A program made the position numbers and the translations under genes. DNA of 12,417 nt, from IMG/VR virus record IMGVR_UViG_2617270966_000008; one strand, 5' to 3'. Below the pieces are notes generated by a model. The model made no database searches. It was not told the origin of the DNA and saw nothing but the letters and a program-made list of their open reading frames with translations. The stretch is from a virus (Duplodnaviria > Heunggongvirae > Uroviricota > Caudoviricetes). Below, piece after piece: positions 5,545-12,417 of the stretch (position 1 is its first letter; every line of letters begins with the position of its first letter).

Positions 5545-5973
5545 TTATTGATACTTCAATAAATATCGAACATTTCCCTGATAAAAAGACAATATACGCT
5601 GCATAACTTCGCTTTTACGGCACTCACTACAAATTATATTATGATGTCTGTCGTAACGACGTATTTCTCCGTCAGCTAATGACCAGATAAGGTCTGGATC
5701 AACCGCAGCGGGTTTCTTCACCTTTGCCCTCGAGAGTTTTTTGCGGGCGTTTTGCCAGTCCTTACGGGCCTGTTCAGACGGGAATAACCCGTAACCAGAG
5801 TTGTATACATCGCCACTGGCAACCAGCTCTCTGGCAAGAGCGCTCATCAGATATCTTGTCGCACCTGTCTTGGCTTCCAGTTGCCGTAACGTCTCACGAC
5901 CGCTCTGGCGCACGAGTTCCACCACCTGCCCTTTAATTTTTTCCCGCTCTTCTTGTGTAAAAACTTTTGCCAC
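5545..5973 (-). CDS. hypothetical protein, 142 aa, possible HTH-like N-terminus and C-terminal Cys pair
   Basis: GTG start at 5971-5973 preceded by AAGGGGGA RBS. No family recognised. Lies between the O-like replication gene and the ATPase gene. Confidence 0.65.
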   Translation of the reverse strand: MAKVFTQEEREKIKGQVVELVRQSGRETLRQLEAKTGATRYLMSALARELVASGDVYNSGYGLFPSEQARKDWQNARKKLSRAKVKKPAAVDPDLIWSLADGEIRRYDRHHNIICSECRKSEVMQRILSFYQGNVRYLLKYQ

Positions 5974-6013: not shown

Positions 6014-6979
6014 TTATCCCCTGAAACCAGGCGGAATTTCGGTATCCGGTTCAGAAATATGATTCACACAACGCTTTATTGGCGAACGCCCCAGGCGAAT
6101 AACCAGCTCATCCCATTTTTCGCGAAGCTTTGACGGACTCATGATGTTTTTGACCCAGAATGGATCTCGCTGTACCCGACCAAACATTTCGCAAATTTGT
6201 CTGTGGCTTCTGCCATCCAGCATCCGCATTGTGCGCACGTCATTGGCCCAGGCAGTCCAGTTAGGCTCTTTTGGTCGCATGATCTCGCCATCATCACTGG
6301 CGGCCTGTTCGTAGAGACCCACGATCCGCCCCCAGATCCACTGCGCACACGCCAAATCCTCCCTGCTACCCCACTGCCGTTTTTTCGCACTAAACACAAC
6401 TGCGTCAGGGTGCCGGATTAAAAAATCCTGTTCAGCCGTCTGCTGGTCCGGTTGCAAAGCTTCCGGACGAAAAGTGTTTTTATTCTCTGTAGTAATCTCT
6501 GTTGTATTCTCTGTAGGATCATCGGGCCATTTTGACCCGATGACATTGGGTCGTTTTGAACCAATGGAGCGTTTCATTTTGACCTCTTCCATCATGTCAT
6601 TTTGACCTGATGGAGCGACGCATTTTGAACTGATGGATTCGCTCAATTTGCCACCATCTAAAAGATCGCTCCCATAGTTGATCGTGTAGAAATTGGTCAT
6701 GTCGCGCTTTGATTTATTGAGCTTTTCGCAACGCAAAAGCCCCAGCGTTTTCAGACTTGCAAACGCGCGCTTTAACGTTGACTCTGACCAGAACGGGAAC
6801 TGCGCCAGCCATTGTTCCGTTGTGTTGTAAATCCAGCGAACACCATCACATTCCATGCCGGAATTGGTATCTCTCAACCAGTAATGCAGTTGCTGCAACA
6901 CAATGGCTTCGTTTAAGCCAATCTTCATCGCAAGCTGTGTGTTTATAACCAGTGGGCGTTCAGCAAAAAGAAGGCTCAT
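6014..6979 (-). CDS. lambda-O-like replication initiator (replisome organiser); origin iterons lie inside the gene
   Basis: Open frame to 7033 (TTG), but the ATG at 6977-6979 with a weak GGATGG RBS is the likelier start (321 aa). N-terminal winged-helix-like region, central T/E/N-rich linker encoded by the repeat region, conserved-looking C-terminal domain. Iteron array inside the gene supports the call. Confidence 0.7.
   Translation of the reverse strand: MSLLFAERPLVINTQLAMKIGLNEAIVLQQLHYWLRDTNSGMECDGVRWIYNTTEQWLAQFPFWSESTLKRAFASLKTLGLLRCEKLNKSKRDMTNFYTINYGSDLLDGGKLSESISSKCVAPSGQNDMMEEVKMKRSIGSKRPNVIGSKWPDDPTENTTEITTENKNTFRPEALQPDQQTAEQDFLIRHPDAVVFSAKKRQWGSREDLACAQWIWGRIVGLYEQAASDDGEIMRPKEPNWTAWANDVRTMRMLDGRSHRQICEMFGRVQRDPFWVKNIMSPSKLREKWDELVIRLGRSPIKRCVNHISEPDTEIPPGFRG
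6481..6665. repeat. putative replication origin: three tandem 12-mers (6481-6516) followed by about five iterons of consensus ATTTTGACC-GATGG at 23-24-bp spacing
   Basis: TATTCTCTGTAG / TAATCTCTGTTG / TATTCTCTGTAG in tandem. TTTTGA cores start at 6540, 6564, 6587, 6610 and 6633, with a degenerate sixth near 6655. Arrangement mirrors ori-lambda inside gene O. Confidence 0.6.
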
Positions 6980-7481
6980 AATTCCATCCAGCTTTTTGTT
7001 GGTATTGCTGTCGATACGCAAGCTTGAAAGCAATTGCTTTTTCTATAAGTTCGTCAGTTTCACGATCTACAACGGCAGGATCTGCAAAAAGCAGTCCGGA
7101 CTCCACCACATCGCCATATTCTTTATTTAACCCAGCGATCATGTACGTAATGCTCTTTCCGTCACTAATTTCACGATACAACCTGAAATCACTAATCCGG
7201 ATAGCCTCCATAATTGCAGGCACTAGCGCTGTGAACTTTTCACGCTTATCCCTGGTGTCGATAGCCTTCCAGCGTTCAAATATCTTCACTCGATTAACGC
7301 TAAGCGCTCGCTGATCAACCGCGCCACCTTCATATGTGACACGCTGAACATCGATGTTCGGGCGCTCTTTCAAAGCCCAGAATGCTTCAGTGATTAATAT
7401 CGTCGCCTGCTCCTGTGTCATTCCTGGTCGACATATCCAGGCATCCAGAGCCTCACGAGCCTGTTCAGGAGTGATTTTCAT
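6960..7481 (-). CDS. hypothetical early protein, 173 aa (occupies the cII/YdaT-like position after the cro-like gene)
   Basis: ATG at 7479-7481; overlaps the dicC stop by 17 nt and the O-like gene start by about 20 nt. No family recognised. Confidence 0.65.
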   Translation of the reverse strand: MKITPEQAREALDAWICRPGMTQEQATILITEAFWALKERPNIDVQRVTYEGGAVDQRALSVNRVKIFERWKAIDTRDKREKFTALVPAIMEAIRISDFRLYREISDGKSITYMIAGLNKEYGDVVESGLLFADPAVVDRETDELIEKAIAFKLAYRQQYQQKAGWNYEPSFC

Positions 7482-7695
7482 TGTTCAACCGCCCCGCCCG
7501 CTTCGTCTTACGATATTCGTCATAAACTTTGGGATCATACTGAAGCTCCCCGCCAGATGCCTCCTGTAGACGCATCGCGCGACCTTCGGGAACTAAATCC
7601 CCTTTCCAGCTATAAAGCGAAGCCAAACGAATACCTGCTGCTTGTGCAAGTTTTGTTTTTGAACCGAAATACAAAAGAGCGTCAGTTTTAAGCAT
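7465..7695 (-). CDS. dicC: DicC, Cro-like regulator of the dicB operon, 76 aa
   Basis: MLKTDALLYFGSKTKLAQAAGIRLASLYSWKGDLVPEGRAMRLQEASGGELQYDPKVYDEYRKTKRAGRLNNENHS matches DicC as recalled. Divergent from dicA. Confidence 0.9.
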   Translation of the reverse strand: MLKTDALLYFGSKTKLAQAAGIRLASLYSWKGDLVPEGRAMRLQEASGGELQYDPKVYDEYRKTKRAGRLNNENHS

Positions 7696-7710: not shown

Positions 7711-7776
7711 TGTTAGTCATGGCTAACAAAATAGATGTTAACAAAAACATAGTCAATACGATTTAGCATTAGCTAA
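7711..7776. promoter_or_regulatory. dicA/dicC divergent promoter-operator region with three palindromic operator-like sites
   Basis: TGTTAGTCATGGCTAACA (7711-7728), TGTTAACA (7736-7743) and TTAGCATTAGCTAA (7763-7776) in the 83-bp gap between the dicC and dicA start codons. Confidence 0.6.
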
Positions 7777-7778
7777 CT

Positions 7779-8186
7779 ATGGATACAAAAAATTTAACCA
7801 TCGGCGAACGCATTAGGTATCGTCGGAAAAACCTCAAACACACCCAAAGGTCTCTTGCTAAAGCCCTGAAAATCTCCCATGTGTCTGTATCACAATGGGA
7901 ACGGGATGATAGTGAACCTACAGGGAAGAACCTTTTTGCCCTCAGCAAAGTATTGCAATGCTCACCAACATGGATTCTATTTGGCGATGAAGACAAGCAA
8001 CCAACACCACCTGTTGAGAAGCCGGTTGCCTTAGCCCCCAAAGAACTAGAGCTCCTTGAGCTGTTTAATGCACTGCCAGAATCAGAACAGGATACCCAGC
8101 TCGCCGAAATGCGAGCTCGAGTAAAAAATTTCAATAAACTCTTTGAAGAATTACTAAAAGCCCGTCAGCGGACAAATAAAAGATAA
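7779..8186 (+). CDS. dicA: DicA, P22 c2-like HTH repressor of the dicB operon, 135 aa
   Basis: MDTKNLTIGERIRYRRKNLKHTQRSLAKALKISHVSVSQWERDD... matches DicA as recalled; HTH_XRE-type N-terminus. Confidence 0.95.
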   Translation: MDTKNLTIGERIRYRRKNLKHTQRSLAKALKISHVSVSQWERDDSEPTGKNLFALSKVLQCSPTWILFGDEDKQPTPPVEKPVALAPKELELLELFNALPESEQDTQLAEMRARVKNFNKLFEELLKARQRTNKR

Positions 8187-10041: not shown

Positions 10042-12417
10042 ATGAGTAAAGTCTTTATTTGCGCCGCTATTCCTGACGAACTGGCAACAAGGGAAGAAGG
10101 CGCTGTGGCTGTAGCCACAGCCATTGAAGCTGGCGACGAACGCCGTGCTCGAGCAAAATTTCACTGGCAGTTCCTGGAACATTATCCGGCTGCTCAGGAC
10201 TGCGCTTATAAATTTATTGTCTGCGAGGATAAACCTGGCATACCCCGCCCTGCCCTCGATTCATGGGATGCTGAATATATGCAGGAAAACCGCTGGGATG
10301 AGGAGTCTGCTTCTTTTGTCCCGGTTGAGACTGAATCCGATCCGATGAACGTCACTTTTGACAAGCTGGCCCCTGAAGTACAGAACGCTGTCATGGTTAA
10401 GTTCGACACATGTGAAAACATCACCGTTGATATGGTTATTAGCGCACAGGAATTGTTGCAGGAAGGCATGGCAACATTCGACGGACATATCGTTGAAGCG
10501 TTGATGAAAATGCCAGAAGTTAACGCCATGTATCCGGAGCTTAAGTTGCACGCCATTGGGTGGGTTAAGCATAAATGTATTCCTGGTGCTAAATGGCCCG
10601 AAATTCAGGCAGAGATGCGCATCTGGAAAAAACGTCGCGAAGGTGAACGCAAGGAAACCGGAAAATACACGTCTGTTGTTGATCTCGCCCGCGCCAAAGC
10701 CAATCAACAGTACACTGAAAATTCAACAGGAAAAATCAGCCCGGTCATTGCTGCCATTCATCGCGAATACAAGCAGACATGGAAAACACTGGATGACGAA
10801 CTGGCCTACGCTCTCTGGCCTGGTGATGTAGATGCCGGAAACATTGACAGCAGCATCCATCGCTGGGCAAAAAATGAAGTTATCGACAACGACCGCGAAG
10901 ACTGGAAGCGTATCTCGGCATCAATGCGCAAACAGCCTGATGCCCTTCGCTACGACCGCCAGACTATTTTTGGCCTTGTCCGTGAACGTCCGATCGACAT
11001 TCACAAAGACCCTGTGGCACTGAACAAATACATTACTGAATACCTGACTACAAAGGGCGTGTTTGAAGATGAAGGAACAAATCAGAGCGCAACTGATACT
11101 CTCTCGTCGCCAGTACCAGAAACTGATGCAGTGGAAACGGCAATTCCAGACAACGAAAAAACCGAATGCAAAGTGGAAGTCGAACCATCTGTAGAACGTG
11201 AGGGGCCGTTCTACTTCCTCTTCACCGACAAGGATGGCGAAAAATACGGTCGCGCAAACAAACTTTCTGGTCTGGATAAGGCGCTGTCTGCTGGGGCTAC
11301 TGAAATCACGAAAGAAGAATATTTCGCCCGCAAAAACGGTACATACTCAGGTTCACAACAAAATACTGGTGCATCTGACACGACCGCACAACCAGGGTCA
11401 GTAAAAGTTACCGCTGACGAAGTAAACAAAATTATGCAGGCAGCCAATATCAGCCAGCCTGACGCCGATGAACTGCTTGCAGTATCACGTGGTGAATTTG
11501 TTGAAGGGATTAGCGACCCGAATGATCCGAAATGGGTTAAGGGGATCCAGACCCGCGATTCTGTGAACCAGAACCAGCAAGAAACGGAACAGAACGACCA
11601 GAAAGCGGAACAAAACAGCCCAAATACGCAACAAAACGAGCCAGAAACGAAACAACCTGAACCAGTAGTGCAACAGGAACCGGAAAAGATCTGCACCGCC
11701 TGCGGTCATAGCGGTGGCGGCAACTGCCCTGATTGTGGTGCGGTGATGGGTGACGCAACATACCAGGAAATATTCGATGGAGAGAATCAGCCTGAAGTTC
11801 AGGAAAATGATCCGGAGGAAATGGAAGGCACTGCGCATCAGCACAAGGAGAACACTGGCGGCAATCAGCATCACAATAGCGATAATGAAACTGGCGAGAC
11901 GGCAGATCACTCAATTAAGGTGAACGGTCATCACGAAATCACATCCACCAGCAGGACGTGTGACCATCTAATGATCGACCTTGAAACCATGGGAAAAAAT
12001 CCTGATGCCCCGATCATCTCAATAGGTGCAATATTTTTCGATCCGCAAACCGGAGATATGGGACCGGAATTTAGTAAGACTATCGATCTGGAAACTGCTG
12101 GCGGAGTCATTGATCGGGACACCATTAAATGGTGGCTTAAGCAATCACGCGAAGCGCAATCTGCCATTATGACCGATGAAATCCCGTTAGATGATGCACT
12201 GTTACAATTGCGGGAATTTATCGACGAAAACTCCGGTGAATTTTTTGTTCATGTCTGGGGAAATGGAGCCAACTTCGACAACACGATTTTGCGCCGTTCA
12301 TACGAACGGCAGGGGATCCCCTGCCCGTGGCGTTACTACAACGATCGAGATGTACGCACAATCGTTGAGCTGGGGAAAGCCATAGACTTCGATGCCAGAA
12401 CGGCTATTCCATTCGAA
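10042..12417 (+). CDS. large YdfE/RecE-like prophage protein (5' partial, at least 792 codons, continues past window end): YdfE-like N-terminal domain, Q/N/E-rich linker, C4 zinc ribbon, DnaQ-like (DEDD) 3'-5' exonuclease-type domain
   Basis: Hand translation from the ATG at 10042 gives no stop through 12417. Starts MSKVFICAAIPDELATREEG (YdfE-like as recalled). C551-x2-C554-x7-C562-x2-C565; MIDLETMG (D646, E648) and GNGANFD exonuclease-like motifs. Confidence 0.8.
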   Translation, partial: MSKVFICAAIPDELATREEGAVAVATAIEAGDERRARAKFHWQFLEHYPAAQDCAYKFIVCEDKPGIPRPALDSWDAEYMQENRWDEESASFVPVETESDPMNVTFDKLAPEVQNAVMVKFDTCENITVDMVISAQELLQEGMATFDGHIVEALMKMPEVNAMYPELKLHAIGWVKHKCIPGAKWPEIQAEMRIWKKRREGERKETGKYTSVVDLARAKANQQYTENSTGKISPVIAAIHREYKQTWKTLDDELAYALWPGDVDAGNIDSSIHRWAKNEVIDNDREDWKRISASMRKQPDALRYDRQTIFGLVRERPIDIHKDPVALNKYITEYLTTKGVFEDEGTNQSATDTLSSPVPETDAVETAIPDNEKTECKVEVEPSVEREGPFYFLFTDKDGEKYGRANKLSGLDKALSAGATEITKEEYFARKNGTYSGSQQNTGASDTTAQPGSVKVTADEVNKIMQAANISQPDADELLAVSRGEFVEGISDPNDPKWVKGIQTRDSVNQNQQETEQNDQKAEQNSPNTQQNEPETKQPEPVVQQEPEKICTACGHSGGGNCPDCGAVMGDATYQEIFDGENQPEVQENDPEEMEGTAHQHKENTGGNQHHNSDNETGETADHSIKVNGHHEITSTSRTCDHLMIDLETMGKNPDAPIISIGAIFFDPQTGDMGPEFSKTIDLETAGGVIDRDTIKWWLKQSREAQSAIMTDEIPLDDALLQLREFIDENSGEFFVHVWGNGANFDNTILRRSYERQGIPCPWRYYNDRDVRTIVELGKAIDFDARTAIPFE

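Follow-up and report, generated by a model that had tools for sequence, protein, structure and literature searches.

Iterons and a conserved 12-mer array at a predicted replication origin within the O-like initiator gene of an Escherichia coli lambdoid prophage

The viral DNA record IMGVR_UViG_2617270966_000008 (12,417 nucleotides [nt], referred to here in its full length as the window) contains the immunity and replication region of an Escherichia coli lambdoid prophage; the repeats described below are almost certainly the replication origin of this lambda-like prophage, placed within its initiator gene as in phage lambda. We analysed a set of repeated sequences lying within its O-like replication initiator gene, which an original prediction had taken for an iteron-type replication origin. 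When open reading frames (ORFs) were called mechanically, this gene began with a TTG at 7033 and encoded 339 amino acids (aa), the length given in that prediction. The annotated homologues in three isolated phages, HannyBb, PhiR42_1 and mEp460_ev081, are 966 nt long; therefore, the likely start is the ATG at 6979, and a protein of 321 aa is the more likely product. These homologues are annotated as 'replication initiation O-like', 'replication protein O' or (by RAST) 'Primosomal protein I' and are 95% identical in DNA to the window gene, with mEp460_4F5 at 79%. The window protein itself matched PHROG 391, 'replication initiation O-like', with E 4.5e-91 in the PHROGs database. The repeats are read on the minus (sense) strand of the gene, where, in the direction of transcription, the iterons come first and the tandem 12-mers follow; coordinates of these and the other features are collected in Table 1.

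Table 1. Features of the initiator gene, its repeats and the neighbouring region in window coordinates; sequences are those of the sense strand of the initiator gene
Feature	Position	Strand	Sequence or remark
AAA_13 gene, 800 aa	3053-5455	-	
DUF977/Ren-like gene	5545-5973	-	downstream of the O-like gene
O-like replication initiator gene	6014-6979	-	321 aa from ATG 6979; PHROG 391; 966-nt homologues
C-terminal tail, aa 301-321	6017-6079	-	VNHISEPDTEIPPGFRG; copies the E. coli DnaT C-terminus
C-terminal domain, aa 183-294	6098-6433	-	homologous to the lambda O C-domain
23-bp dyad	6446-6468		GTCCGGAAGC-TTT-GCAACCGGAC, whole GTCCGGTTGCAAAGCTTCCGGAC; just after the AT-rich block
A/T run	6469-6480		AAAACACTTTTC; prolongs the low-stability segment
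Three tandem 12-mers	6481-6516		CTACAGAGAATA / CAACAGAGATTA / CTACAGAGAATA; core CAGAGAnTA
Iteron 1	6520-6542		CATCGGGTCAAAATGGCCCGATG; near-perfect 23-bp palindrome; adjoins the 12-mers
Iteron 2	6544-6566		CATTGGTTCAAAACGACCCAATG; 23-bp dyad
Iteron 3	6567-6589		GAAGAGGTCAAAATGAAACGCTC; core only
Iteron 4	6590-6612		CATCAGGTCAAAATGACATGATG; 23-bp dyad
Iteron 5	6613-6635		CATCAGTTCAAAATGCGTCGCTC; core and left arm
Iteron 6	6636-6658		GATGGTGGCAAATTGAGCGAATC; degenerate, CAAATTG core
N-terminal winged-helix domain, aa 1-105	6665-6979	-	presumed iteron-binding; no Pfam model
YdaT/cII-like gene	6960-7481	-	
cro-like gene	7465-7695	-	
pR-like promoter	7728-7756	-	upstream of the cro-like gene; TTGACT-17-TATTTT, from a consensus scan and gene order
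cI-like repressor gene	7779-8186	+	

The iterons form a head-to-tail array of six 23-base-pair (bp) units between 6520 and 6658, all of the sense-strand type CATCGGGTCAAAATGGCCCGATG or variants of it. Units 1, 2 and 4 are near-perfect palindromes over their entire length, and units 3, 5 and 6 retain the core and at most one arm. The exact sense core GKTCAAAAYG occurred five times in the window, always on one strand (at 6528, 6552, 6575, 6598 and 6621), compared with 0.21 occurrences expected, and none of 200 shuffled sequences reached five; for the full 23-mer dyad pattern there were four matches where shuffles gave an expectation of 0.00. Scans with the core and with the 23-mer pattern revealed no second iteron cluster elsewhere in the window. 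The five exact cores had spacings of 24, 23, 23 and 23 bp, in agreement with the 23-24 bp originally proposed; the proposed number of about five copies had to be raised to six, with the sixth degenerate.

As palindromic units can also pair in RNA, we considered whether they might act as mRNA hairpins controlling translation or stability of the O-like message. The sense RNA from 6440 to 6665 did fold unusually well (-65.6 versus -47.3 kcal/mol, z = -4.4, beating 200 of 200 shuffles), iterons 1, 2 and 4 as well as the dyad being predicted to form hairpins. Such folding potential is, however, an automatic by-product of palindromic protein sites, and the second arm is missing in three of the six units; the constant feature is instead the core GKTCAAAAYG, which falls partly in the loop. 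Moreover, sequence is conserved beyond pairing between phages of E. coli and Staphylococcus; the iteron CATCGGGACAAAATGGCCCGACG of Staphylococcus phage P954 equals iteron 1 of the window at 21 of 23 bases (counted by eye). A hairpin function as the reason for these repeats is thus very improbable.

The three tandem 12-mers of the original prediction were found at 6481-6492, 6493-6504 and 6505-6516, reading TATTCTCTGTAG, TAATCTCTGTTG and TATTCTCTGTAG on the plus strand; the 12-mer pattern had three matches in the window relative to 0.18 expected. A nearest-neighbour stability profile showed that, within the gene, duplex stability is lowest over the 40 bp at 6470-6510, comprising 12-mers and A/T run, with 73% AT and at the 99th percentile of the window. 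We consider the 12-mers a candidate sequence-specific DNA-unwinding or helicase-loading element. The dyad that follows is equal in length to an iteron and unrelated to it in sequence. In enterobacterial relatives from both N-domain families, 8-9 of the 10 pairs in its arms are kept; the dyad of Providencia is altered on both arms (GTCAGGCTCA-TGC-TGAGCCCGAC).

The repeats encode residues 108-167 of the protein. In an AlphaFold2 model with an overall pLDDT (the predicted local distance difference test score) of 57, residues 109-175 were disordered, with pLDDT below 50, and the C-domain was helical; this confirmed the linker-coding location that had been claimed for the repeats. Because the 12-mers are in frame (four codons each) and encode T-E-x-T within a disordered linker, the repetition could in principle merely mirror a low-complexity peptide (e.g. 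TENTTEITTEN) and have no function as DNA. Several observations argue against this. The 23-bp iteron period is not a multiple of three and puts successive iterons in reading frames 0, 2, 1, 0, 2 and 2; therefore, the repetition lies in the DNA and is not a peptide repeat. In a protein-guided codon alignment with 12 relatives, from Escherichia, Klebsiella, Citrobacter, Raoultella, Izhakiella, Enterobacter, Pantoea, Providencia and Pseudomonas, the N-domain behaved as an ordinary protein, with aa identities of 0.54-0.78 and third-codon-position identities of 0.32-0.54. The iteron part showed the reverse pattern, 0.26-0.64 and 0.55-0.85, respectively, its nucleotide identity also exceeding that of the N-domain, and third-position identity in the 12-mers was 0.77-1.00. 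When T-E-x-T repeats were defined by their peptide sequence, GAG accounted for 40 of 41 Glu codons, compared with 45% in the remainder of the same ORFs (Fisher p 7.5e-13), and ACA for 41 of 41 codons of the first Thr, compared with 24% (Fisher p 2e-24); these counts are phylogenetically dependent. In six lineages one 12-mer copy stands in a different reading frame, encoding for example D-R-D-Y, and in the second N-domain family the codon that begins the 12-mer varies (ACA, TCA or GCA) while CAGAGAnTAC is unchanged. These results demonstrated that selection acts on the DNA of the repeat region and not on the protein, and leave the peptide explanation with next to no plausibility.

Relatives of the N-domain were collected by protein similarity alone and came from Enterobacteriaceae, Pantoea, Pseudomonas, Providencia, Gilliamella, a Campylobacterales metagenome-assembled genome (MAG), Bacillus, Geobacillus and Selenomonas; further matches lay in metagenome bins labelled Deferribacterales, Sericytochromatia and cyanobacteria, and in Staphylococcus phages. 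Most of them have the same arrangement: downstream of the stretch coding for the N-domain lie 3-7 repeats, spaced 23 nt apart, and after these come 2-4 (T)ACAGAGA(N)TAC units in tandem, the exceptions in period being Bacillus and Geobacillus (22 nt) and one MAG (21 nt). In most of 36 genome loci of family A, the family seeded by the window protein, a best lag of 23, 22 or 21 nt was accompanied by the array. Members from Pantoea and Pseudomonas have iterons of the GGGCAAATTGCCC type. Some relatives of 400-880 aa have two tandem N-domain copies ahead of the repeats (L040, L042, L047; P0126, P0127 and others).

The C-domains joined to this N-domain vary: lambda-O-like in the window, Phg_2220_C in Klebsiella Kp4886-3 and Pantoea AH07, DnaB_2 in Staphylococcus P954 and Geobacillus, and none recognised in others. 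Conversely, when the lambda-O-like C-domain is joined to an HTH_36 N-domain, as in phages 569R4 and Kp4877-4, the gene contains five or six GTCAAAATCTGAC repeats with a 15-bp period and lacks 12-mers (L009:2627-2790 and L010:2638-2760), which looks like a swap of the whole module of N-domain and sites. Since the same N-domain keeps its iterons across different C-domains, while the same C-domain with HTH_36 has other repeats, we concluded from sequence comparison that iterons travel with the N-domain, as expected of an initiator and its sites.

The 12-mers proved to extend beyond the window N-domain family. A search with the window N-domain alone returned 9,858 clusters at 50% identity (E<=1e-3). 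When IMG/VR was scanned for the 12-mer array itself, at least 120 loci were found; among the matches listed, 61 had the window N-domain family upstream and 53 had other, distantly related N-domains, so that we rejected the idea that the array is exclusive to the window family. Fourteen of these 53 loci were examined, and in each the array was preceded by a repeat sequence of its own, with a best period of 21-23 nt in 13 of the 14, the signal being weak in several. One of the other N-domain groups was homologous to the window family (hhalign probability 97%, E 5e-11). For this second family, which has no Pfam model, sequences were fetched by a protein pattern alone, taken from five closer sequences; the CAGAGAnTAC array lay downstream in 69 of 69 distinct loci, and 23 nt was the best lag before the array in 67 of 68. 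The window thus falls within a class recognisable by two traits, an N-domain superfamily with the pattern A..L.Q..YW ... W.Y.T..EW and iterons of 21-23 bp followed by 2-4 CAGAGAnTAC units. The array was absent from the other initiator types examined (lambda O, P22 gp18, 80alpha ORF20 and HTH_36).

Across these comparisons, each N-domain family has iterons of its own sequence, whereas the 23-bp period and the CAGAGAnTAC array are constant. Thousands of phages, with hosts ranging from E. coli to Staphylococcus, share this layout, which seems to be undescribed. A full-text literature search for the iteron and 12-mer sequences returned unrelated papers only, and no description of the N-domain superfamily, the 23-bp grammar or the 12-mer array was found in the searchable literature, which excludes much of the older subscription record; the novelty of all three is, therefore, provisional. 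Because the 12-mers are constant while iterons, C-domains and hosts change, we infer that their reader is either a host factor of universal occurrence or some portion of the initiators that is conserved across the superfamily; alternatively, they could act via a purine-rich transcript.

The protein domains supported the O-like initiator call of the original prediction, the gene product being a two-domain initiator. Residues 147-294 aligned with residues 135-270 of lambda O (34% identity over 148 positions, E 1e-27 in BLASTP), and tblastn with the C-domain matched lambda, 21, phi80 and Stx phages; together with the PHROGs match, this homology upheld the call. The N-domain is not of the lambda O type. 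Its 105 residues gave no BLASTP alignment with lambda O, and at E<=0.01 Pfam matched the window protein to no family, neither to PF04492 (Phage_rep_O), the family of the lambda O N-domain, nor to a Phage_rep_org_N-type N-domain. In the AlphaFold2 model the N-domain has the topology H-H-beta-beta-H-H-beta hairpin, with pLDDT of 64-87 for this block. The top Foldseek matches in the PDB were the N-domains of RepA_N plasmid initiators (5kbj, 4pql and 4pt7), with weak scores (E 9e-3 to 5e-2, target template-modelling score [TM] about 0.5); as these matches were both weak and generic for winged helices, they did not suffice to place the protein in the RepA_N family, although its fold may be RepA_N/DnaD-like.

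At the other end of the protein, the last 21 residues, IKRCVNHISEPDTEIPPGFRG, copy the C-terminus of E. coli K-12 DnaT. The only NCBIfam match of the protein was that of this tail to positions 159-179 of the DnaT profile, with E 0.0036, far under the curated cut-off. Relatives with other C-domains retain the ...P.GFRG end. How DnaT recruits or engages DnaB-DnaC was still called unknown in a 2026 structural study of the preprimosome (PMC13377028). Among the window ORFs scanned against Pfam there was no P-, DnaC- or DnaB-like protein, and no helicase loader gene is annotated beside the O-like gene in HannyBb or mEp460_4F5.

For lambda, an origin inside the initiator gene is textbook knowledge, and there, as in the window, it occupies the linker-coding middle of the gene and the C-domain is homologous; transcription of the window gene would likewise come from a pR-like promoter. 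The iteron of lambda, ATCCCTCAAAACGAGGGA, is likewise dyad-symmetric and shares the centre TCAAAAYG with that of the window. As annotated, ori-lambda consists of four iterons, a 38-bp AT-rich region and a dyad, in the same order as in the window (PMC3349717; PMC7466680), while Stx phages have six iterons, the number found here (PMC7466680). The AT-rich, purine-rich segment that follows the lambda iterons corresponds to the 12-mer block and A/T run, and the lambda dyad, ATTCGTCAGA-GAAT-TCTGGCGAAT, at the right end of ori-lambda, to the dyad at 6446-6468; the parallel that the original prediction drew with ori-lambda inside O thus extends to iterons, low-stability segment and dyad. There are also clear differences. 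The iterons of lambda are 18-19 bp long at 20-24 bp spacing, whereas those of the window are 23 bp long and abut without spacers; the AT-rich region of lambda is replaced in the window by a conserved tandem 12-mer; the N-domain of lambda O belongs to another family; and lambda has a P gene and an O protein without a DnaT-like tail, whereas the window protein has the tail and no P gene was found. Purine-rich direct repeats (ACAAAAGACA...) were seen in the AT-rich parts of the lambda and P22 origins, at the same position as the 12-mers: ACAAAAGACAATA twice in P22 (L331:2418-2470) and ACAAAAGACACTATTACAAAAGA in lambda (L005:1121-1170). Being like the CAGAGAnTAC units in position and composition, they could be a diverged counterpart of them.

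Embedded origins of a similar kind occur in other initiator genes. SPP1 G38P oriL, 80alpha ORF20 and P22 gene 18 likewise combine iterons and an AT-rich stretch inside the initiator gene, and the GenBank records place rep_origin inside 80alpha gp20 and P22 gene 18. For 80alpha, whose ORF20 is related to SPP1 G38P, the embedded origin was proposed because deletion of the gene could not be complemented in trans (PMC5499656). We rejected 80alpha ORF20 and P22 gene 18 as studied members of the class described here; their iterons and periods differ, they lack the CAGAGAnTAC array, and, judged by eye, their N-domains are others, that of 80alpha ORF20 having no resemblance to the window N-domain and that of P22 gp18 being lambda-O-like at the N-terminus.

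The RepA_N initiators pSK41 Rep and pTZ2162 RepA are built from a winged-helix N-domain that binds repeats in its own gene, a linker and a host-specific, exchangeable C-domain; in pSK41 the Rep boxes lie centrally in rep, and the linker encoded by the origin is dispensable (PMC5703833). The window shares with these initiators the position of the origin repeats in mid-gene, where they encode the linker. It differs in that there was no Pfam RepA_N (PF06970) match and no RepA_N chain in a profile search of PDB sequences; RepA_N proteins, moreover, are those of Gram-positive plasmids. To our knowledge, the CAGAGAnTAC array is not known from RepA_N plasmids. A functional analogy for the 12-mers is offered by the DnaA-trios of bacterial oriC and the 13-mers of RK2 oriV, the latter bound by TrfA as single-stranded DNA (ssDNA), which are sequence-specific unwinding elements beside initiator boxes. 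Both they and the 12-mers are conserved short tandem repeats adjoining an initiator array in the least stable DNA; those of the window have a period of 12 nt and another motif, and the comparison serves as a lead to possible ssDNA binding at them.

All computable predictions for an origin embedded in an O-like initiator gene agreed with what was found, and the origin reading is supported, with the refinement that the 12-mers are a sequence-conserved element and not generic AT-rich DNA. We conclude, with a probability of roughly four in five, that the repeats constitute the predicted vegetative (theta-type) replication origin of a lambdoid prophage of the mEp460/HannyBb type, located inside the linker-coding middle of its own initiator gene. 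The computed evidence does not tell binding from firing, and the same repeats might instead serve purely in regulation, bound by the O-like protein or a different one to achieve autoregulation, control of copy number by handcuffing or the exclusion of related phages, with the origin elsewhere. We regard this as quite unlikely, as the array is always accompanied by the low-stability, sequence-conserved 12-mer block and, in enterobacteria, also by the dyad, which together make up the full lambda layout, and as the window contains no further iteron cluster; regulatory and origin roles are, in any case, not mutually exclusive.

From what was demonstrated above (the repeats, their conservation as DNA, the homologous domains, a duplex of low stability and iterons that co-vary with N-domains), a course of binding, wrapping, unwinding and helicase recruitment at this predicted origin can be proposed. 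Transcription from the pR-like promoter would supply the O-like protein and would itself cross the origin site. The winged-helix N-domain, probably as a dimer, would then occupy the six abutting iterons, three of them 23-bp palindromes. With one site directly following another every 23 bp (about 2.2 helical turns), each bound dimer would be turned stepwise relative to its neighbour and, by analogy with lambda O and pSK41 Rep, the dimers together would wrap the DNA into an O-some-like complex. Stress from this complex may open the adjoining least-stable segment, 6469-6516, made up of the three CAGAGAnTA 12-mers and the A/T run. Finally, the lambda-O-like C-domain and the DnaT-like tail may bring in host DnaB-DnaC, a step we propose because no P- or DnaC-like loader gene was recognised in the window or beside the gene in two related phages.

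A promoter and terminator scan detected a single consensus promoter upstream of the cro-like gene and no promoter inside the origin; transcription from it would run through the cro-like, cII/YdaT-like and O-like genes and hence across the origin. For the AAA_13 ATPase gene of 800 aa there was a match to PDC-S06, a candidate single-gene defence system in PADLOC (E 0, 1067 bits), and a weaker similarity to PrrC. Because the gene is missing at the equivalent position in phage HannyBb, it looks like an inserted defence gene beside the replication module. At the far side of the window, 11565-11655, Tandem Repeats Finder reported 4.3 copies of a 21-bp unit, GAAACAAAACGAGCCAGAAAC, within a 161-aa minus-strand ORF that had no PHROG match.

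A number of observations weigh against the proposed origin. DnaA boxes are not enriched, with 25 matches in the window relative to 27.5 expected and none within the origin; a DnaA-dependent reading was dropped on these counts. Across the whole window, the 12-mer segment ranks only tenth among 40-bp stretches in order of instability, behind intergenic regions and the inserted gene, and the pR-like promoter is solely a consensus match. RepA_N initiators match the fold of the N-domain only weakly (E about 1e-2, TM 0.5, whole-model pLDDT 57), and the profile search of PDB sequences found no solved-structure relative for it. The present copy, furthermore, may belong to a prophage that no longer replicates. 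The origin segment 6400-6720 occurs in 1,870 of 5,426 complete E. coli genomes, in up to four copies per genome, and many of these prophages are surely cryptic; in 9 of 12 listed RefSeq records the overlying gene is labelled 'hypothetical protein'. With the extra 800-aa gene, this abundance would fit a genuine origin type preserved here as a relic in a defective prophage. We consider a relic unlikely, as nothing interrupts the initiator ORF, no immunity or replication gene is incomplete and the repeats are all shared, at about 95% identity, with phages that were isolated and form plaques.

The embedded origin itself is thus of a known kind, and the N-domain superfamily, the fixed 23-bp grammar and the invariant 12-mer are, provisionally, the apparently new part. 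As a tentative proposal, which could hold though we would not yet rely on it, the CAGAGAnTAC 12-mers may be a sequence-specific origin element common to the winged-helix initiators of this large and uncurated superfamily, whose phages infect Proteobacteria, Firmicutes and other phyla. A conserved surface of the initiator, or a host replication protein of universal occurrence, would recognise them, possibly as ssDNA or as an RNA-DNA hybrid with a purine-rich transcript, and they would show precisely where unwinding and helicase loading take place, in the manner of DnaA-trios. The variable 23-bp iterons would provide specificity, and the enterobacterial DnaT-like tail would plug the initiator into the host DnaB-DnaC pathway without a phage loader.

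These findings locate the predicted origin of a prophage type present in about a third of complete E. coli genomes, and they allow origins to be predicted in thousands of temperate phages by a simple rule, namely, a winged-helix N-domain, iterons with a 23-bp period and a CAGAGAnTAC array. As the initiator domain and its own binding sites co-vary within one gene, sequence alone could suffice to read a code of protein-DNA recognition. The constancy of the 12-mer suggests that the site of unwinding or loading is specified by sequence, and the DnaT-like tail offers a handle on how adaptors of the DnaT type engage DnaB-DnaC.

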